Below, piece after piece: positions 47 through 8,993 of a DNA stretch of 22,040 nucleotides (positions within the stretch are counted from its first letter, which is position 1; each line of letters begins with the position of its first letter). Under the pieces are notes generated by a model, which was given only the letters and a program-made list of their open reading frames with translations, did no database searches and was not told where the DNA came from. Made by a program: the position numbers and the translations under genes. The DNA is from a virus: UHGV virus genome UHGV-0332375, one strand, 5' to 3'.

Positions 47-340
47 TTAACTCTCGTTCAGCACACTAAACATCCCGTCACGCATCCCCTTAACTGACTG
101 TTTAACCTGATAAAGTTCCCTGCGCAGTTCCTGTACTTCGTTGTTATCCGCAAGCAGGATCAGGCAGCCTTCCGAGATCTTCACGGTAACGCCCGTGCCG
201 ATCTCAAATCCCGCTTCTCTCAGCCATTTGGCGCTGATTTTGATCACTGGTGTATCGCTGCGGTTGGGCAGATAACCCACGGTACAGCGACGCTGTGTTT
301 TGGAAATGGCGACTTCTGGCGTAATATCGCGTTCAGCCAT
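47..340 (-). CDS. SymE-family (type I toxin-like, AbrB/SpoVT-fold) protein
   Basis: 97-aa ORF; segment PVIKISAKWLREAGFEIGTGVTVKISEGCLILLA closely resembles the core of E. coli SymE (…[33 protein letters not shown]…) as recalled from memory; SD-like GAGG upstream of the ATG; followed by a terminator. Confidence 0.7.
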   Translation of the reverse strand: MAERDITPEVAISKTQRRCTVGYLPNRSDTPVIKISAKWLREAGFEIGTGVTVKISEGCLILLADNNEVQELRRELYQVKQSVKGMRDGMFSVLNES

Positions 341-421
341 GATTAACTACCTCTGTTAGTTGCTTATGGTGAGCGGTGGTTAAGGGTGGCAGCCCTTAAT
401 CATCGCGCTATCTCAATGTTA

Positions 422-814
422 TTACTGCGTTTTTCCTATCACATTATCTAAAATCTCAGAAACCAGCTTCTGCTTCGTTCGCGGTAACTGGCTGATGATC
501 TCGATCTGCTGTTCCAGCCGTGACGCCGGGCCGCGCTTGCTGCTTCTGCGTGGTGCTGGCAATCCGAGCAGTTCATCCAGCGACAGGTTCAGGATCTGTG
601 CCAGTTGTGGTAACAGCGCTGCCGAAACCTTGAGCTTCCCGCCTTCGTAATGCGCCATCGTCTGCTGTGCAATCCCTAACTGTTCTGCCAGTTGCGTCTG
701 TGTCAGTTGCTGTTCCTTACGTGCCTGTGCGATCCGTGCGCCAAGCTGCTTAAAAAACTGTTCGTCTTTGGTGTTCATGGCCTGCTGTAGCTGTCCTGTC
801 GTTAACACTGCCAT
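422..814 (-). CDS. XRE-family helix-turn-helix transcriptional regulator
   Basis: HTH signature LTQTQLAEQLGIAQQTMAHYEGGK. The ORF track gives 422-850 from a TTG codon; I prefer the ATG at 814-812, which has a GGGAG Shine-Dalgarno 7 nt upstream (130 aa). Divergent from the primase gene. Confidence 0.7.
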   Translation of the reverse strand: MAVLTTGQLQQAMNTKDEQFFKQLGARIAQARKEQQLTQTQLAEQLGIAQQTMAHYEGGKLKVSAALLPQLAQILNLSLDELLGLPAPRRSSKRGPASRLEQQIEIISQLPRTKQKLVSEILDNVIGKTQ

Positions 815-839
815 GATGTTACTCCCTGTTTTAAATAAC

Positions 840-928
840 TTGGTTGACAATACCCTAATATAGAGTACTCTGCAACAGAGTTATTTTTACCCTAAGTCTA
901 TTGACAGGTTTTTACAGGAGTTCCCGTT
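840..928. promoter_or_regulatory. Divergent promoter/operator region between the XRE regulator and the primase
   Basis: Two TTGACA hexamers (844-849, 901-906), two TACCCTAA direct repeats (851-858, 889-896), a perfect 10-bp palindrome AGAGTACTCT (863-872) overlapping inverted repeat ACTCTG…CAGAGT; AGGAG SD before the primase ATG at 929. Confidence 0.4.
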
Positions 929-3751
929 ATGGCCCGCATCCCGGAAGCAGAGTTGCAGCACCTGAAAGCCGCCGTCTCCTTAGTCGCCGTGGTTCAGGCG
1001 CAGGGGCGACAACTGGTTAAGAAAGGGAAGGACTTCACCACGCTGTGTCCGTTCCATGACGAGAAAACGCCGTCCTGTGTGATCTCGCCCGAGAAAAACC
1101 TGTATCACTGCTTCGGCTGTAACGCAGGCGGATCGGTGCTGAACTGGGTGATGCAGACGGAAAAACTCAGCCTGCGTAAGGCAGCGGAACGTCTGAAAGC
1201 GGAGCTGGGCGACAATCCCGCCGTGGTGCCGCTGGTCACCAGGGATGAGCCGGAAATCTTCGCGGACGATGAAGCGGGCCGCCAGAAGCTGCTGGGCCGC
1301 GTGGTGGAGTTCTACCATCACACGCTGCTGAACGCGCCGGAAGCGGTGGCGTACCTGGAAAAGCGCCGTCTTAACCATCCTGAACTGGTCGCTGCCTTCA
1401 AACTCGGCTTCGCCAACCGTACCCTGCCTTACCGCCTGCCCGCCGTTAAATCACGGGCGGGCGAGAAGATCCGCGCCCGGCTTAAGGGTGTGGGTGTGCT
1501 GCGCGAGTCCGGGCATGAACACTTCACCGGATCGCTGGTTGTGCCGGTGATGGATCTGAACGGGCAGATCCGCGAGATGTACGGGCGCAAGATCACCGAC
1601 AGGTTGCGCAGCGGTACGGCGTTACACCTGTACCTGCCCGGTGCTCACGGCGGCGTGTGGAACGAGCAGGCGCTGATCGGGTCATCCGTGGTTATCCTGT
1701 GCGAATCGCTGATCGACGCCATGTCGTTCTGGGTCGCCGGAGTCCGTAACGTCACGGCGGCTTACGGGGTGAACGGCTTCACCGGTGAGATGCGGGCCGC
1801 ACTGCTGGCACACGGCGTTAAGCAGGTGCTGATCGCCTACGACAACGATCCGGCGGGCAATGAGGCAGCGGTGAAACTGGCTTCTTCCTTAGCCGCTGAC
1901 GGGATCGCCACGTTCCGCGTACTGTTCCCGGCGGGCATGGATGCGAACGGTTATCTGTGCCAGGTGGCAGAGCCGGAACAGGCGTTCAGTGTGTTGCTGG
2001 ACGGCGCGGTGCCCATGAGTGACCTGGCTGACGTGGCGAGTATCGCGCCGCAGGCCAGCGCGGAGCCTGCACACCTCACTTCGTTAGCCGCTGATGTTGC
2101 CGCGCTTCCGGCAGTTAGTGCGCCTGCGCCGGGCGTCAGCGTGGAAACCCTGGCTGATGGCGAACTGATGGTAGCCTTACCGGGCGAACGCTGGACAATC
2201 CGGGGCGTAAGCCGCAAAACCAACGCGGCGGCGATGAAGGTTAACGCGCAGGTGCTGGACACGGAAAGCGGCGTGGTGTTCGCCGATGCGGTGGATATGA
2301 TGAGCGCCCGCAGTCGCGGCGGTTATGCGCGGGCCGCAGCGGCAGAGCTTGGCCTGGCAGAAGGCGATCTGCGTCGCTCGCTGGGTAAGGTGCTGCTGGC
2401 GCTGGAGCACTGGCAGGCCGCACCGGAGCCCGCGAATGCCGCCCCGGAGATGACGCCGGAAGATCGGGAGGCAGCGCTTGAGTTGTTGCGCTCGCCGGAT
2501 CTTGCATCACGCATCGCGGCAGACATGGCGGCGTGTGGTGTGGTGGGTGAGTCCACCAACCTGACGGCGGCGTATCTGGCGGCGGTGTCGCGTAAGCTGG
2601 ACAGGCCGCTGGCGGTGCTGATCCAGTCATCGAGCGCGGCGGGCAAATCCTCGCTGATGGATGCGGTGCTCAACCTGATCCCGCCGGAAGAACGCTTACA
2701 GTACAGCGCCATGACCGGGCAGAGCCTGTTCTACCTCGGTGAAACCAACCTGCAACACAAGATCCTCGCCATCGCGGAAGAAGAAGGTGTGCGCCAGGCG
2801 GCGTATGCGCTCAAGCTGTTGCAGTCGGACGGCGAGTTAACGATCGCGTCAACGGGTAAGGACGACGCCAGCGGTAACCTGGTCACGAAACAGTACACGG
2901 TAAAAGGCCCGGTGATGCTGATGCTGACCACCACCGCCATCGACGTTGACGAGGAGTTACTCAACCGTTGCCTGGTGCTGACGGTGAACGAGTCGCGGGA
3001 GCAGACGGAAGCGATCCATGCGGCGCAGCGTTACGCGCAGACGCTGGAAGGACTGCTGGCGGCTAACGAAAAAAGTTACATCACTCAGCTTCACCAGAAC
3101 GCGCAGCGGCTGTTACGTCCGCTCAACGTGGTGAACCCGTTCGCGTCACAGCTCACGTTCATGAGCGACAAAACCCGCACCCGGCGCGACCACATGAAAT
3201 ACCTGACGCTGATCCAGACGATCGCCCTGCTGCACCAGTATCAGCGGGAGATCAAACGTGTGGAGCATCGCGGGCAGGTGGTGGAGTACATCGAGGTGAC
3301 GCGGGAAGACATCGCGCTGGCGAACCGCCTGGCACATGAAATACTCGGGCGCACCCTGGACGAAATGCCGCCGCAGACCAGAAAGCTGTTGCTGCTGATC
3401 CAGACAATGGTCGGTGAACTGGCAGCGGCGCAGCACTGCAAACCCGGCGAGGTACGCTTCACGCGCCGGGAGATCCGCGACTTCACGCAGTGGAGCGACA
3501 ACCAGCTTAAAGTCCACTGTATGCGGCTGGCGGAAATGGAATACCTGCTGATCCACGGCGGCAGCCGGGGTCACCTGCTGCAATACGAGTTGCTGTGGGA
3601 CGGCAGCGGCGACGGCTCGCACCTGTGCGGCCTGATCGAACCGGAGGACAGCCCGGTGTATGACTCCGGCAAGTTGGGGCAGAACGCGGACAGGTTGCCC
3701 TTAAGTTGCCCACATGTTGGGGCTAAGTTGGGGCTAAGTTGGGGGCGGTAA
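929..3751 (+). CDS. DNA primase, DnaG-like (CHC2 zinc finger, TOPRIM) fused to a large C-terminal domain with a P-loop-like motif
   Basis: 940-aa ORF. N-terminus CPFHDEKTPSC…YHCFGCNAGGS matches the DnaG zinc-binding domain (E. coli DnaG CCPFHNEKTPSF…YHCFGCGAHG); TOPRIM-like ILCESLIDAMS and AYDNDPAGNEAA; Walker-A-like SSSAAGKSS in the C-terminal half. The last ~30 codons overlap an iteron-like repeat array, so the exact C-terminus is uncertain. Confidence 0.85.
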   Translation: MARIPEAELQHLKAAVSLVAVVQAQGRQLVKKGKDFTTLCPFHDEKTPSCVISPEKNLYHCFGCNAGGSVLNWVMQTEKLSLRKAAERLKAELGDNPAVVPLVTRDEPEIFADDEAGRQKLLGRVVEFYHHTLLNAPEAVAYLEKRRLNHPELVAAFKLGFANRTLPYRLPAVKSRAGEKIRARLKGVGVLRESGHEHFTGSLVVPVMDLNGQIREMYGRKITDRLRSGTALHLYLPGAHGGVWNEQALIGSSVVILCESLIDAMSFWVAGVRNVTAAYGVNGFTGEMRAALLAHGVKQVLIAYDNDPAGNEAAVKLASSLAADGIATFRVLFPAGMDANGYLCQVAEPEQAFSVLLDGAVPMSDLADVASIAPQASAEPAHLTSLAADVAALPAVSAPAPGVSVETLADGELMVALPGERWTIRGVSRKTNAAAMKVNAQVLDTESGVVFADAVDMMSARSRGGYARAAAAELGLAEGDLRRSLGKVLLALEHWQAAPEPANAAPEMTPEDREAALELLRSPDLASRIAADMAACGVVGESTNLTAAYLAAVSRKLDRPLAVLIQSSSAAGKSSLMDAVLNLIPPEERLQYSAMTGQSLFYLGETNLQHKILAIAEEEGVRQAAYALKLLQSDGELTIASTGKDDASGNLVTKQYTVKGPVMLMLTTTAIDVDEELLNRCLVLTVNESREQTEAIHAAQRYAQTLEGLLAANEKSYITQLHQNAQRLLRPLNVVNPFASQLTFMSDKTRTRRDHMKYLTLIQTIALLHQYQREIKRVEHRGQVVEYIEVTREDIALANRLAHEILGRTLDEMPPQTRKLLLLIQTMVGELAAAQHCKPGEVRFTRREIRDFTQWSDNQLKVHCMRLAEMEYLLIHGGSRGHLLQYELLWDGSGDGSHLCGLIEPEDSPVYDSGKLGQNADRLPLSCPHVGAKLGLSWGR

Positions 3752-3803: not shown

Positions 3804-3903
3804 AGATGAAAAAACACTGTTCCCGACAGCCAGGAAAACATCACATCGTAACAGTAATACGCCGGAAAGCCGCCCGACACCCCATGACACGGCTCCGACA
3901 GCT

Positions 3904-3985
3904 CTGTAAGCCGCTCCGTGTCTGTTGTTGCTAACCATTCGCATGTATAAACAAACAGTTCATTTTTTACAAAAAACGCGCTATA
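3904..3985. repeat. Left copy of an imperfect ~85-bp direct repeat (CTGTAAGCCGC … ATGTATAAACAAACAG … ACAAAAAACGCGCT)
   Basis: Aligns by eye with 6306-6385: identical 11-mer CTGTAAGCCGC, 15/16 match over ATGTATAA(A/G)CAAACAG, similar T-run/ACAAAA/CGCT tail. A third partial copy of the 11-mer is at 3758-3768. Marks the GC-rich to AT-rich transition. Confidence 0.6.
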
Positions 3986-4126
3986 TACATCAATAGGTTG
4001 GAAGATGGTTTCTCCCCATCGATTATGAGTGTTAAAGCATTTTTATGACAATATGGTCATATTTTTGACCTAAGCTTATTTAGATGGTAGGATACATAAC
4101 CGTGATAAAGTAAATGGGCTGTCATT

Positions 4127-5266
4127 ATGATTTTAAATTTTGGTGCGAAAAATTTCTTCAGCTTTAAGGAAGGATTTGATATTTCATTTGAGCTTGGTAA
4201 TACTTGCCCAAAAGAAATTTCAAATGGGAAAGGCGTAACGAATATCCTTTGTATCAAAGGGGCTAATGGTTCAGGTAAAACGAATATACTAAAGGCACTA
4301 AGTTTTTTAACTAGTTTTATCTCTAATTCTTTTGATCTTAAACCAAATGCATATTTGCAGTTTGATCCATATTTTAATAGTAAATCTGAATCTGATTTCT
4401 ATATAACATTTGTATTAGATAATGTTATTTACAGATATGAAGCGTCAATGACTGACGTTGAGGTTAAACGAGAAGCTCTTTATAGAAAAAGTAAACGAGA
4501 AACTAAAGTTATTGAACGTATCAACGATGCAGTTGTGTTCACAATTAAAGAGTTTGATGAATTAAAAAGTATTAAAATGCGAAAAAATGTATCCCTTTTT
4601 AGCATGGCAATGCAATATGATGTTGATTGTGTTAGAGCAATTCATGAAAGTTTTACTAGGGTTATATCAAACGTCAGATATTCAGGTTTATTGACAGAAG
4701 TGCACGAATTAGAATATTTAAACGAATTTTATCATAATAACCCAGATGTATTCGATTTTTGTAAAAAAATTATAATGAAATTCGACCCCTCTATTCATGA
4801 TATTTATATAGCTAAAAATATTAATGATGACGGGAAAGTTACTTACAGGCCTTGGTTTGAGTTTGAGTTTGATGGTGAAACTGATATTTTAAGTTTTAAC
4901 CTGCAATCAAGTGGAACAAAATCATTATATAAGCAGTTAGGAAGTTATAAAGCTGTCCTGGCATTAGGTGGAACGCTTGTACTTGATGAGTTTGACATAA
5001 ATCTTCATCCTCATATACTTCCACATTTATTAGGTATTTTTATTGATGAGGAGCAAAACCCATATAATGCTCAGTTAATATTTACAACTCATAATACTGA
5101 GATTCTGGATTTTTTAGGAAAACATCGAACATATTTAGTCAACAAAAATAAGACTGAAAGTTATTGTTATCGACTTGATGAAATCCCTAGCGATATTTTA
5201 AGGAATGATCGCCCCATAACACCAGCCTATAATCAAGGTAAGATTGGTGGAGTTCCAAATTTATGA
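4127..5266 (+). CDS. ABC/AAA_21-family ATPase (abortive-infection / defence-type ATPase)
   Basis: 379 aa; Walker A GANGSGKTNILKA near residue 45, Walker B LVLDEFDINLHP, TTHN motif near the C-terminus; N-terminal MILNFGAKNFFSFKE typical of AAA_15/AAA_21 ATPases; strongly AT-rich codon usage; candidate promoter TTGACC-N17-TAGGAT about 4065-4093. Confidence 0.8.
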   Translation: MILNFGAKNFFSFKEGFDISFELGNTCPKEISNGKGVTNILCIKGANGSGKTNILKALSFLTSFISNSFDLKPNAYLQFDPYFNSKSESDFYITFVLDNVIYRYEASMTDVEVKREALYRKSKRETKVIERINDAVVFTIKEFDELKSIKMRKNVSLFSMAMQYDVDCVRAIHESFTRVISNVRYSGLLTEVHELEYLNEFYHNNPDVFDFCKKIIMKFDPSIHDIYIAKNINDDGKVTYRPWFEFEFDGETDILSFNLQSSGTKSLYKQLGSYKAVLALGGTLVLDEFDINLHPHILPHLLGIFIDEEQNPYNAQLIFTTHNTEILDFLGKHRTYLVNKNKTESYCYRLDEIPSDILRNDRPITPAYNQGKIGGVPNL

Positions 5267-5766
5267 GCAGAAAGTTTGGAAACTCCAATGCTCAAAAATT
5301 TCTAAAGGGATTTGAGGGGTTAGCAAGTCTTGACTCTGCAGAGTGTAATTTGGCTAGGAGATGTAAATTTAATTTCTCTTATTTTATAAGTAACCAAAAA
5401 GCTTGTGGTAAATTGTCGGATTGGGATAAAGATACAATATGTGTTTTTTTTGACAAGTTAATTGATTACTCTTCGAAATCGTTAAGTGATTTACAAATGA
5501 TCGGTTTGGGAAAGAATCGAAAAAAATTACTTTCTATTTATGATTCTTTCCCCAAAAATAGTTTGTTTGAACAACCTAAAAACATTCCTCATCAGGCTCG
5601 GTGGGGACGAATTAGATTAGATCAGAATAAAAGACTGATTGGGTTTGTTATTCCTGATGATTATCATGGACAAAGACATGAAGGCACTGGAATGTATTAT
5701 GATAAAAATACATTTTATGTTGTTTTTATTGATAATAACCATGGTTTTTATCTTCTTAATAAATAG
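5263..5766 (+). CDS. Hypothetical 167-aa protein, translationally coupled partner of the AAA_21 ATPase
   Basis: Start ATG overlaps the ATPase stop (ATGA at 5263-5266); same AT-rich composition; no motif I can assign to a known effector family (no HNH, TOPRIM, TM segments). Confidence 0.65.
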   Translation: MSRKFGNSNAQKFLKGFEGLASLDSAECNLARRCKFNFSYFISNQKACGKLSDWDKDTICVFFDKLIDYSSKSLSDLQMIGLGKNRKKLLSIYDSFPKNSLFEQPKNIPHQARWGRIRLDQNKRLIGFVIPDDYHGQRHEGTGMYYDKNTFYVVFIDNNHGFYLLNK

Positions 5767-5952
5767 CATTATCACTTCGGTTATCTATATGGGATATATA
5801 GGTGACCGAATTTTTAAGAAAAATGTTTTTAGTTGTAAAAACACATTGCGATATTTATTTCAGCATGTGGAACTGTAAGTATCTCGCATAATCGAAGCAT
5901 TCACATTTAGAGATCTTCTGGCATATTCATTCTGCCAACGAAGGAGATCGTT

Positions 5953-6295
5953 ATGCGTAAAGCCCATTTTACTGAGCATCAGATCATCGCTGTGATTAAG
6001 TCGGTTGAAGCCGGACGAACTGTCAAGGATGTTTGCCGCGAGACCGGTTTCTCTGAAGCGACCTACTACAATTGGAAACCTAAATACGGTGGTATGGAAG
6101 CCTTTGATATTAAAAAGATAAAGGATTTTGAGGACGAGAACAGGCGTCTCAAACAGATGTTTGCTGACATATCAGCCTTGAGAACAGGGCATTGAGACGT
6201 TATCGGAAAAAGCTTTGAAACCAGTCTTTAAGCGTGAGCTGGTCACTCATCTGATAACGACGTTCGGGCTTAGTATCCGTCAGGCCTGCCCCGGA
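5953..6295 (+). mobile_element. Truncated IS3-family insertion sequence remnant (orfA plus start of orfB)
   Basis: ORF 5953-6195 has the HTH_Tnp_1 pattern (FTEHQIIAVIKSVEAGRTVKDVCRETGFSEATYYNWKPKYGGME, similar to IS407-group OrfA); a shifted frame after an A-rich slippery-like stretch (GGAAAAAG ~6205) reads …LKPVFKRELVTHLITTFGLSIRQAC…, typical of an OrfB N-terminus, then breaks off about 6295 where repeat copy C begins. Higher GC than the flanking cargo. Confidence 0.6.
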
Positions 6296-6305
6296 CTTTA
6301 ATTTG

Positions 6306-6385
6306 CTGTAAGCCGCGTGATTCGTGCCCTGACACCCCAAATATATGTATAAGCAAACAGATCTTTTATAACAAAACCGCTCTTT
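6306..6385. repeat. Right copy of the imperfect ~85-bp direct repeat (CTGTAAGCCGC … ATGTATAAGCAAACAG … ACAAAACCGCTC)
   Basis: See 3904-3985; abuts the truncated IS remnant. Confidence 0.6.
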
Positions 6386-6428: not shown

Positions 6429-7427
6429 TCAAGGCGTCGTTGCTTGAGTTGGATTCAGTTCAGAAACATTTGCAGCTTCTGCTTGCTGGACTATAGCTGT
6501 ACGGCGTTTCCGCTTTTTCTTCGGTTTTGGGCTAGTCATCTCTTTAATCCCCAGCATTTCCATGACTTCTGGCTGAGGTGGATAGCAAATACCTATGTCA
6601 GCAGGAGGTGTTGAGTGTCGATGTTTTTCAACTAACGATTTTTCATTATTCCAACGTTTGCAGAGGAAAATAATTCCTTCGAAGTAACGTTCATCTCTTT
6701 TCTGTGCCTCGAGAAGAATGAAAAATGCTCTTCTTTCTAGCCCTTCTAAAAATCCACAAAAGCATTCTCTGAGAAGTTTCTCGTCAAGATCATTGGCCTT
6801 AATTCCTTGAGCTAAAAACTCAAAGAAATTAAGAAGGTACACCAACCCGTTAATCCCTTTCACAACTTCATCTGGGACTTTTGAGTTTTTGAATTTTGGA
6901 TGGTCCGGGTCATCTCTCCAAACACATAGCTCTTTTGGAACATGGCGATTACCTCTCCATAAGTGCGTGAAATTACGCAAATGCGTTTGGTATTCAGTAC
7001 ATGTCCTAGTGCTAAGAACAACATTTAAAGTATGTTTTCTTCGATCACTTGCAGCGGAGGTGATGAATTGGATCCACCACCCCATACCAGCGATTGAACC
7101 GGCAACAATGATTGAAAGAGCTGTTTGGTAGGCATCATTATAGCGAAGTACGTAATATGCCAGCAGGAAAAGTACCCAAACCACACCTCCGAAAAGAGGT
7201 AGTAGTGGGTTTGTATCTGGAAATTTGTTACTGATTTTGTAGACGCTATATAGTGTTGTAAATGTTGCAAATGTAATCATTAACCCAGCATCGAACACTG
7301 CGTAAAACCAAGATGCAGTCTGTACTGCGTTTAAATTAAGTAAAATTCTCGTAATTATGAGACTGATCAAGATGCCAACCAGGACACCAAGCAGTGTTTT
7401 AGTTTTACTTTTTATCCATCGGTACAT
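6429..7427 (-). CDS. Hypothetical multi-pass membrane protein with C-terminal soluble domain and basic tail
   Basis: 332 aa; about four hydrophobic segments in the first ~120 residues (LLGVLVGILISLIITRILL, LMITFATFTTLYSVY, LFGGVVWVLFLLAYYVL, IIVAGSIAGMGWWIQFI); C-terminal KPKKKRKRR tract; AT-rich; lies just outside the prophage int-proximal end. Confidence 0.65.
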   Translation of the reverse strand: MYRWIKSKTKTLLGVLVGILISLIITRILLNLNAVQTASWFYAVFDAGLMITFATFTTLYSVYKISNKFPDTNPLLPLFGGVVWVLFLLAYYVLRYNDAYQTALSIIVAGSIAGMGWWIQFITSAASDRRKHTLNVVLSTRTCTEYQTHLRNFTHLWRGNRHVPKELCVWRDDPDHPKFKNSKVPDEVVKGINGLVYLLNFFEFLAQGIKANDLDEKLLRECFCGFLEGLERRAFFILLEAQKRDERYFEGIIFLCKRWNNEKSLVEKHRHSTPPADIGICYPPQPEVMEMLGIKEMTSPKPKKKRKRRTAIVQQAEAANVSELNPTQATTP

Positions 7428-7808: not shown

Positions 7809-8993
7809 TTATCCTGTACGGATTTCTCCATGCGGTACCACTACCCAGTTTGTATGATTTTTAGTGTATATTTTAGTCGATTTTGCATCGCTATGTGCCA
7901 TTCTTCCTTGTGGATCAATACCTTGTTTATCAAATAAGTGAGCAGCCAAAGCCCTTATCTCATGAAATGTAGGCCTTTCTTCCATTGCTAAGTGATTGCA
8001 CAGTCCGAGTTTGTCACGTACAGCAGAGAATGAGCGGCTTATGTAGTCCGGGGCCACTTGAGTAGGGTGCGAAACCTCTTTGCTACGTTTTACATTCCGC
8101 TTTGGAATTCTGTGGACAACGTAAGGACTGGCTACATTATCCCGACTGTTATCAATGATGCGTTTTAGTTCATCACCGATAGGGATTGCAACATGTGACG
8201 CCTCCTTTTTCTGTACCTTTTGCCGATGAATATATAGCATTCCGTATATTCCATTTTGTTGTTGCTCGAACCAGATACATCCACATATGCCGTCTTTAGG
8301 TTCGCGAATTGAGTAACGGATCCGCGATACTTCTAACCGTGCATGTGTCGTTTGTAAGGCTAAGTCCATTGCAGTTCTTAACCATGGTGCCGCGGCGCGG
8401 CGTATAGCCATGAAATGCTCGAATGATAGGCGTTGTCTTTTCTTCTCATCAGTCCTACGTTTTTTTTTCCTCGTTGCGGGGTTATCAAGCATTAGTGATT
8501 CGTCGACCGCATATGAGAACAACTTTTTAAGGAAGCCAACTTTTCTGTTCTGCACATTTGCGGATGAATTGTCATGATATTTGTTGATATAGGCGTTAAC
8601 GTGTTCAAGTTCGATATCGCATGCCGGAATATTTAAGAAAAAATCTTTTACGCGTAGAGCGTCATTTTTCCAGTCATCTAAGGTGCTCTGGGAAGGACGT
8701 TCGTCTTCGACAATTCGGGCCATTATGTGATCAACATGTTCAGCAAATGGTTTTGCTTCTCCGGTAACCCCGCCAGATTCTCTAATAAGATTATCCACTG
8801 ATGGGTATAATTCTGGTCGCATCCTCAGGTTGTACTCTCTGGCGATTGCAACGGCTATTGTCCGATCCTTACCTATATTTTTCTTTTTTCCGGTAATAAG
8901 TGTGAATTTATAAACACCTCGATCTTTATCAAAAACCAGATAATCAGGAAGATGTCTGTATTCTTTTTTACGTGGCCTTGCCGCCATGGTCAT
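7809..8993 (-). CDS. int: Tyrosine recombinase (phage integrase, lambda Int family)
   Basis: 394 aa; C-terminal catalytic region with PTFHEIRALAAHLF … GRMAHSDAKSTKIYTKNH; N-terminal basic arm-binding-like region; overlaps the xis stop. Confidence 0.9.
   Translation of the reverse strand: MTMAARPRKKEYRHLPDYLVFDKDRGVYKFTLITGKKKNIGKDRTIAVAIAREYNLRMRPELYPSVDNLIRESGGVTGEAKPFAEHVDHIMARIVEDERPSQSTLDDWKNDALRVKDFFLNIPACDIELEHVNAYINKYHDNSSANVQNRKVGFLKKLFSYAVDESLMLDNPATRKKKRRTDEKKRQRLSFEHFMAIRRAAAPWLRTAMDLALQTTHARLEVSRIRYSIREPKDGICGCIWFEQQQNGIYGMLYIHRQKVQKKEASHVAIPIGDELKRIIDNSRDNVASPYVVHRIPKRNVKRSKEVSHPTQVAPDYISRSFSAVRDKLGLCNHLAMEERPTFHEIRALAAHLFDKQGIDPQGRMAHSDAKSTKIYTKNHTNWVVVPHGEIRTG

Follow-up and report, generated by a model that had tools for sequence, protein, structure and literature searches.

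A prophage-borne gene pair of Escherichia coli that probably encodes an AarT-type toxin and its AbiLi-like ATPase partner

The stretch of DNA UHGV-0332375 was analysed at its full length of 22,040 nucleotides (nt); this whole stretch is referred to as the window, and its positions serve as gene coordinates. It carries two overlapping genes, named in RefSeq as 'AAA family ATPase' (gene 1) and 'hypothetical protein' (gene 2). The window is E. coli chromosome, and the gene pair occurs at an identity of at least 99.9% in 15 of 5,426 complete genomes, always at a chromosomal location. The two genes probably form a toxin-antitoxin or abortive-infection module of the AarT type, in which gene 2 would encode a divergent RelE/ParE toxin held inactive by the ATP-binding cassette (ABC) ATPase encoded by gene 1. 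An earlier, sequence-only reading had regarded the pair as an undescribed anti-phage defence module with a potentially new effector. The family has already been named and partly characterised (AarT, 2023), and its anti-phage role is unproven. New in this study are the member carried by an E. coli prophage, the distinction between a long and a short form of the toxin, a set of candidate active-site residues and the boundary between this ATPase clade and the ATPases paired with RloB.

Both open reading frames (ORFs) and their ATGA overlap were read in the sequence as claimed (Table 1). A Shine-Dalgarno-like GGTGGAG (positions 5246-5252) is situated inside gene 1, 13 nt 5' of the gene 2 ATG, and a candidate promoter-like site with an extended -10 element was found approximately 34 nt 5' of the gene 1 ATG. 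Since this site and a terminator-like hairpin bracket both genes, the pair looks like a self-contained bicistronic operon. The 4-nt overlap, the flanking promoter-like and terminator-like signals and the conservation of the pairing across loci are all consistent with the proposed co-expression as a two-gene unit. The pair is also more AT-rich than its surroundings, as had been noted, with a GC content of 0.31-0.33 across positions 4001-6000 compared to 0.55-0.67 upstream and 0.35-0.47 downstream. A separate observation concerns the near-invariant C-terminal GKIGGVP of the ATPase clade (window positions 5236-5262), which is encoded by GGTAAGATTGGTGGAGTTCCA and contains the Shine-Dalgarno-like GGTGGAG; the constraint on the protein and that on the ribosome-binding site of gene 2 may coincide in this segment.

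Table 1. Coordinates of the gene pair, its putative expression signals and neighbouring features in the window (aa, amino acids; sRNA, small RNA)
Feature	Position	Strand	Description
Gene 1	4127..5266	+	379-aa ABC-type (AAA_21, AbiLi-like) ATPase; predicted antitoxin and sensor
Gene 2	5263..5766	+	167 aa; predicted RelE/ParE-fold toxin, very likely AarT (NetFlax D3) family, long form
ATGA start/stop overlap	5263..5266	+	Junction AAT TTA TGA GC; gene 2 ATG shares 4 nt with gene 1 TGA
Promoter-like site	4065..4093	+	TTGACC, 17 nt, TAGGAT, TG before -10; consensus scan, pattern match only
Intrinsic-terminator-like hairpin	5776..5820	+	16-bp stem and T-run, 10 nt past gene 2 stop
Left end of mobile unit	3873..3940		Junction at 3873, GC drop at ~3940
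IS3-family transposase remnant	5953..6195	+	HTH_Tnp_1 only, Pfam 7e-25; RefSeq: frameshifted, incomplete
isrN Hfq-binding sRNA	6217-6343	-	Rfam RF01396, 61.7 bits vs gathering 44; between IS3 remnant and DUF4760 gene
DUF4760 protein	6429..7427	-	332 aa, Pfam 2.7e-14; N-terminal hydrophobic segments
Lambda-type tyrosine integrase	7809..8993	-	Pfam Arm-DNA-bind_1; RefSeq 'phage integrase'

Gene 1 encodes an ATPase of the ABC/SMC type, as found next to nucleases in abortive-infection systems. The three motifs pointed out previously were all located, namely, Walker A (GANGSGKT) at residue 45, Walker B (LVLDEFD) at residue 284 and the H-loop TTHN at residue 320, and an ABC-signature-like SSGTKS is present at residue 261. 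The protein matched AAA_21 in Pfam (7.5e-37), and its top PADLOC model was AbiLi (PDLC02335, 1.6e-64), followed by AriA of the PARIS system (3.9e-33), with PtuA (a weak match, 1.5e-09), HEC-01A and PDC-M far below these two. The previous assignment to the AbiLi/AriA/PtuA kind of ATPase was thereby upheld.

Searched at E values up to 1, the partner protein encoded by gene 2 had no match in Pfam, NCBIfam or PADLOC, and the reported lack of HNH and TOPRIM/DUF4435 features agrees with the Pfam and PADLOC results, which show no RloB features either. A profile built from 60 family sequences had no significant match among the PDB sequences. The first homologue search retrieved 169 clusters of approximately 160-170 aa each, none of them named and none with a Pfam domain, and an exhaustive profile search of 1.84 billion proteins retrieved only 372 representatives, all of which are stand-alone proteins and none of which is fused to a larger protein. 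The structural model shows the arrangement of two helices and an antiparallel sheet that is characteristic of the RelE/ParE superfamily, and although the Foldseek search against the PDB was not significant (best E 0.37), its top three matches were RelE/YoeB/ParE toxins. In both structure searches the RNase members HigB, RelE, YoeB and YafQ scored consistently above ParE. Judged from the model, gene 2 is a divergent toxin of the RelE/ParE superfamily and not a new fold, and the expectation of a new effector was not confirmed. Compared to the mRNA interferases RelE, HigB, YoeB and YafQ, gene 2 has no detectable sequence similarity, is some 60-80 residues longer, possesses an N-terminal extension that adds an extra strand (KFNFSY), and is partnered with an ATPase, not with a small antitoxin that binds DNA.

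As exemplified by YoeB and HigB, the RNase site of this superfamily consists of an Arg on the central strand and a C-terminal cluster of Asp, His and aromatic residues. Conservation was computed over 543 non-redundant members of the gene 2 family, using the numbering of the window protein, and the polar residues that reach at least 85% conservation in each of the two subfamilies were Y93, R116, D157 and H160, next to W114 and a hydrophobic core. These four polar residues are candidate RNase residues, and gene 2 most likely encodes an RNase that stops translation. The two subfamilies correspond to a long form of the toxin, represented by the 167-aa protein of the window, and a short form of 133-150 aa, which differ by a 17-residue insertion before the last strand. 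They are considered one family because their profiles aligned with an hhalign probability of 99.86% (E 3e-31).

Relatives of gene 2 were collected in a scan of 100,044 species represented by a single genome each (128 relatives, 80 loci retained), and in a scan of viral contigs (37 relatives); all partner counts for gene 2 are based on the 107 loci with a readable upstream gene. The family never occurs alone, as a specific partner gene lies directly upstream in all 107 loci, far from what chance would give, which supports the view that the two genes are conserved together. In 78 of them the partner is an ATPase of the gene 1 type (phmmer E values from 1e-25 to 1e-147, the weakest belonging to ORFs cut by a contig end or a frameshift), and in 48 of these 78 the toxin ATG is located inside the ATPase stop codon, with the same 4-nt overlap. 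The ATPase-toxin pair stands isolated among unrelated housekeeping genes in four distant metagenomic contexts, and on a Shewanella conjugative plasmid it is found between integrases and a retron. The toxin is preceded by a more distant ATPase in 2 of the 107 loci. As a side observation, a third architecture, formed by a short toxin and a distant ATPase of 437-447 aa, was noted at loci L080 (2569-4297), L086 (2569-4297) and L183 (2848-4603); the ATPases of L080 and L086 match gene 1 with phmmer E values of about 1e-21. This subtype is probably the one closest to the experimentally tested pair of Acinetobacter guerrae that is described below.

The other 27 loci, mostly from Bacteroidota and their phages, contain the short form downstream of a protein of approximately 165 aa that is not an ATPase. 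This upstream protein was identified as the SocA/Panacea antitoxin domain (PF13274) in all 16 non-redundant representatives (best E 1.2e-23). Many unrelated toxins are partnered by the antitoxin Panacea (PMC8832971, PMC10440598), and because the short form occupies the PanT position beside it, the gene 2 domain was marked as a toxin. The PanA-PanT pairs and the window pair have in common a toxin domain of the same family, whereas the antitoxin position is held by Panacea in the former and by an ABC ATPase in the latter. The Panacea-paired short form occurs in abundance among gut Bacteroidota and in their phages, with 1,488 clusters (for example, L003 5421-6351 and loci L110-L128), and one Phocaeicola cluster is present on at least 1,000 contigs. 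These short toxins are annotated only as hypothetical proteins, as in the case of gp23/gp24 of Bacteroides phage BI-TP1.

The exchange of partners was also examined from the side of the ATPase, in a survey of 75 relatives of gene 1 in viral contigs. All 16 ATPases whose profile score reaches 455 bits or more, corresponding to at least 38% identity to gene 1, have the toxin directly downstream. Below 455 bits, 22 loci carry a partner of approximately 185-245 aa and 20 a partner of approximately 170 aa, and representatives of both groups match RloB (PF13707) and the PADLOC model AbiLii; the ATPases that carry RloB/AbiLii are 25-37% identical to gene 1. Further ATPases below this score are accompanied by a HEPN_RiboL-PSP partner (one locus) or by a PtuB-type HNH protein as in Septu (four loci). 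Since the partner changes from the toxin to RloB, HEPN or HNH proteins below 455 bits, gene 1 is assigned to a distinct clade of AbiLi-like ATPases in which the effector was swapped from a TOPRIM protein to a RelE-fold toxin. At locus L145 (3001-4966), an ATPase with 39% identity to gene 1 is followed not by the toxin but by a 260-aa coiled-coil or membrane-like protein with no match in Pfam or PADLOC, which may represent another effector swap.

A comparison with the literature revealed that this gene pair resembles a described one. NetFlax (Ernits et al., PNAS 2023, PMC10440598) contains the hub node D29 (an 'AAA ATPase antitoxin' of the AriA/GajA/PtuA kind), which is linked to RloB (D44), TOPRIM_OLD, HNH (D51), HEPN (M61) and toxin D3, termed 'AarT', which had no HHpred match and an mRNA-interferase fold (PMC10440598). 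The type pair consists of the A. guerrae ATPase WP_152878174.1 and the toxin WP_152878172.1, with the antitoxin gene first (PMC10440598). The likeness extends over several levels: the partners of D29 agree with those of the ATPase-centred survey (toxin, RloB, HEPN and HNH); in both pairs the ATPase comes first and a small, tightly coupled toxin second; and AarT and gene 2 alike combine the lack of a domain-model match with an mRNA-interferase (RelE-like) fold. The NetFlax dataset lists the pairs 'D29 : D3' (order 'AT') and 'Panacea : D3' (PMC10440598), to which the dual architecture found independently in this study, a toxin controlled by either an ATPase or Panacea, corresponds.

The protein termini are in agreement with this assignment. 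As derived from the NetFlax primers used to re-amplify the two genes (PMC10440598), the A. guerrae ATPase starts with MLVNFS and ends with IKGTD, the toxin starts with MAAKRQS and ends with PKKHT, and the toxin ATG is located one base past the ATPase stop (TAAAATG). The start of the ATPase conforms to the pattern of the clade, M[LI][LVI]x[FY][GS], as in MLVSFG, MIVNFG or MLLEFS. Twenty-six members of the gene 2 family, from both forms, end with K[KR][HN]T, among which L078 and P0203 end exactly with PKKHT, and the P0244 toxin starts with MSVAKRQN and ends with EKKHT. Neither the type proteins of A. guerrae nor those of A. maritimus were among the 120 matches listed in two subfamily-profile searches. 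Taken together, it is very likely that the window pair belongs to the AarT(D3):AAA(D29) family, which it matches in every testable respect, so that the pair can no longer be considered undescribed. There are also differences, since the E. coli toxin belongs to the long form, with its 17-residue insertion and the N-terminal MSKKF.NS, whereas the termini of the type toxin look nearer to the shorter subtype, and the E. coli copy is prophage cargo.

This link provides experimental precedent. The A. guerrae AarT was shown to be toxic, and its toxicity was neutralised by the ATPase in co-expression (PMC10440598). Incorporation of 35S-Met was inhibited and that of uridine went up, which is the pattern of an inhibition of translation (PMC10440598). 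By analogy, the toxin of the window would also be toxic, be neutralised by its ATPase and inhibit translation.

Among known systems, several share parts of this design. Canonical AbiL and PARIS consist of an ABC ATPase together with a TOPRIM/OLD nuclease (PMC13064643). AbiL of Lactococcus and RloAB, like the window pair, are bicistronic with overlapping genes, and AbiLi is the best PADLOC match of gene 1, but the AbiL/RloAB effector is a TOPRIM/OLD nuclease, whereas gene 2 is predicted to be RelE-fold and has no RloB/AbiLii match; canonical AbiL was rejected as an identification. In PARIS, an ABC ATPase restrains a toxic effector that targets RNA and whose activation halts translation; the system is toxin-antitoxin-like and often found on prophages and satellites (PMC13064643). 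Its effector is a TOPRIM/DUF4435 protein (the tRNA nuclease AriB), in contrast to the RelE-like gene 2, which has no AriB match, and defence is hypothetical for the window pair; PARIS was also rejected, despite the AriA match, as was Septu, for which the PtuA match is weak and a PtuB/HNH match of gene 2 is lacking. WonAB, from the WASA-1 prophage of V. cholerae, pairs an ABC ATPase with an approximately 16-kDa effector that is a PD-(D/E)xK variant and arrests translation (PMC12137116). WonB is toxic only with WonA and its ATPase activity, and simple sequestration was ruled out (PMC12137116). Like the window pair, WonAB is a prophage-borne ABC ATPase with a small effector (approximately 16-19 kDa), but WonA is required for toxicity, whereas the ATPase of the AarT type pair neutralises it. 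Using the E. coli WonA and WonB sequences from the supplement of the WonAB paper, membership in WonAB, PD-T4-4 or 'OLD-ABC ATPase + novel REase' was rejected, as the gene 2 family aligned with WonB at an hhalign probability of 0.08% and has no D...(D/E)xK motif, and as WonA gave a best BLASTP E value of 1.0 with gene 1 and has only generic ABC motifs in common with it.

The most likely mechanism for the window pair is that translation of the toxin is coupled to that of the ATPase on a shared transcript, and that the ATPase holds the toxin in an inactive state, probably within a multimeric complex. If PARIS and AbiL are taken as a guide, the state of the ATPase may change, and the toxin be freed or activated, upon a cue derived from a phage or upon loss of the ATPase, and the RelE-fold RNase toxin would then arrest protein synthesis in the infected cell. 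In its full form, namely, an abortive-infection defence of the PARIS/AbiL kind in which a RelE-fold RNase replaces the TOPRIM effector and the ATPase senses a phage protein and releases or activates a toxin directed at the ribosome or tRNA, this proposal is a serious possibility that falls slightly short of an even chance.

Several points weigh against the interpretation as an AarT-type module, or against its extension to defence. Gene 2 did not match the Pfam models of RelE, ParE, HigB, YoeB or YafQ at E values up to 1, and the catalytic role of Y93, R116, D157 and H160 is guesswork. The identification with D3/D29 is based on matching properties and approximately 18 terminal residues, not on a full-length comparison. 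The tested A. guerrae pair may be part of a different subclade, with a short toxin and a distant ATPase as at L080, L086 and L183, so that its results may transfer inexactly. No convincing AlphaFold2 (AF2) interface was obtained for the A. guerrae ATPase with its toxin (PMC10440598), and that pair provided no protection from BASEL phages or from common laboratory phages (PMC10440598), which leaves the proposed anti-phage function of the window pair hypothetical.

Since no BASEL or laboratory phage was affected by the type member (PMC10440598), the pair might be a plain addiction or stabilisation toxin-antitoxin system without anti-phage function, with the ATPase as a stable proteinaceous antitoxin that helps a prophage or plasmid to persist. 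This appears rather unlikely. The negative phage screen used a heterologous host and coliphages only. The presence of the module on a prophage, on a conjugative plasmid and on many viral contigs, where addiction modules are also common, is compatible with an addiction role, but defence cargo would fit the integrase-adjacent position and, on the Shewanella plasmid, the neighbouring retron. Ordinary toxin-antitoxin pairs of the Panacea type make use of the same toxin; yet an ATP-hydrolysing SMC-like sensor would be a costly antitoxin for simple addiction, and the closest relatives of the ATPase are found in the validated abortive-infection systems AbiL, PARIS and Septu (PMC13064643).

The co-expression experiment with the A. 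guerrae proteins, in which the ATPase neutralised AarT (PMC10440598), makes it quite unlikely that the effector requires the ATPase as a co-activator or partner, in the way that WonB requires WonA, instead of being neutralised by it. Such a role would be in line with the same layout and translation arrest in WonAB, where sequestration was ruled out (PMC12137116), and with the lack of a convincing 1:1 interface for the AAA-toxin pairs in NetFlax (PMC10440598). But WonA and WonB are unrelated to the window pair, and the pairing of the toxin family with the Panacea antitoxin implies toxicity on its own. It is improbable that the gene 2 toxin poisons gyrase in the manner of ParE and is not an RNase, as HigB, RelE, YoeB and YafQ outscore ParE in both structure searches, the Arg, Asp, His and Tyr conserved across both forms are typical of the RNase branch, and the type member blocked translation while uridine incorporation increased (PMC10440598). 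The possibility that the models overlooked the second gene of a canonical, catalogued ATPase-nuclease system (AbiL, PARIS, Septu, Gabija, WonAB or PD-T4-4) can practically be dismissed, in spite of the match of gene 1 to AbiLi (1.6e-64) and those to AriA and PtuA, since gene 2 has no AbiLii, AriB, PtuB or other PADLOC match at E values up to 1, the partners of more distant ATPases match AbiLii/RloB or PtuB readily, the predicted fold of gene 2 is RelE-like and not TOPRIM, HNH or PD-(D/E)xK, and the comparisons with WonB (hhalign 0.08%) and WonA (BLASTP E = 1) were negative.

As to the genomic setting of the pair, the window shares sequence identity with strains MJ-T and 8178 from exactly position 3873 rightward, and the left flanks are unrelated. 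The unit shared from this position on comprises the pair, the IS3 remnant, the DUF4760 gene, the lambda-type integrase and lambdoid prophage genes. On its left, a primase/helix-turn-helix (HTH)/SymE element is found in the window and in strain GTEN_24, and narP-yejO in MJ-T and 8178; the homology of the duplicated primase module stops at position ~3888. Because strain identity starts at 3873 and runs through the pair to the prophage genes, the pair belongs to the cargo of a lambdoid prophage, at its integrase-proximal end, and does not represent a separate insertion between two elements. Of the setting that had been proposed, the status as mobile-element cargo next to an IS3 remnant was retained, whereas the slot between two mobile elements had to be given up, as the unit starts at 3873 and the left primase element is replaced by narP-yejO elsewhere. 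In a megablast search of the region against plasmids, the IS3 remnant alone matched. All three examined strains have the DUF4760 gene between the pair and the integrase; the product of this gene has no PADLOC match and may be further cargo or a defence candidate.

Additional observations were made on the left side of the junction. In strain MJ-T (L204 ~8820-8873), the sequence GGTCGGCACGAGAGGATTTGAACCTCCGACC, left of the position corresponding to window position 3873, resembles the 3' end of a tRNA, as for an attachment site; ARAGORN called no tRNA left of the MJ-T junction. Positions 47-3751 of the window encode a SymE toxin, an HTH regulator and a 940-aa DnaG-type primase with a P-loop domain, which form one module. 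This module is duplicated in GTEN_24 (L001 4304-9042 and 13140-17889, 95.4% identity over 4.7 kb), where copy one is followed by XerC and copy two by the prophage end. The 940-aa primase matches PADLOC models for DRT-associated DnaG-like proteins, and the module resembles a small element, integrative or satellite-like, within an Rhs region.

The AarT-type toxin of this pair is invisible to RefSeq, Pfam, NCBIfam and PADLOC, and because PADLOC would report an orphan AbiLi only, censuses of defence systems probably miss the module. Through the link to AarT:AAA(D29), the module can be named, its mechanism predicted and earlier experiments drawn upon, and the copy on the E. coli prophage offers a native-host setting for asking whether the family protects against phages, a question left by the only published test, with coliphages in a heterologous host. 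The sharp boundary between toxin-carrying ATPases, at 38% identity or more, and their RloB-carrying relatives is a clean case of effector swapping on a conserved sensor ATPase, and one toxin fold under the control of either Panacea or an ATPase is a useful handle on antitoxin action. If the defence role is correct, the copy on the E. coli prophage would become the first of the family for which a phage target can be demonstrated, and a single sensor ATPase scaffold would be seen to drive structurally unrelated RNases, and a single toxin to be controlled by Panacea or by an ATPase.

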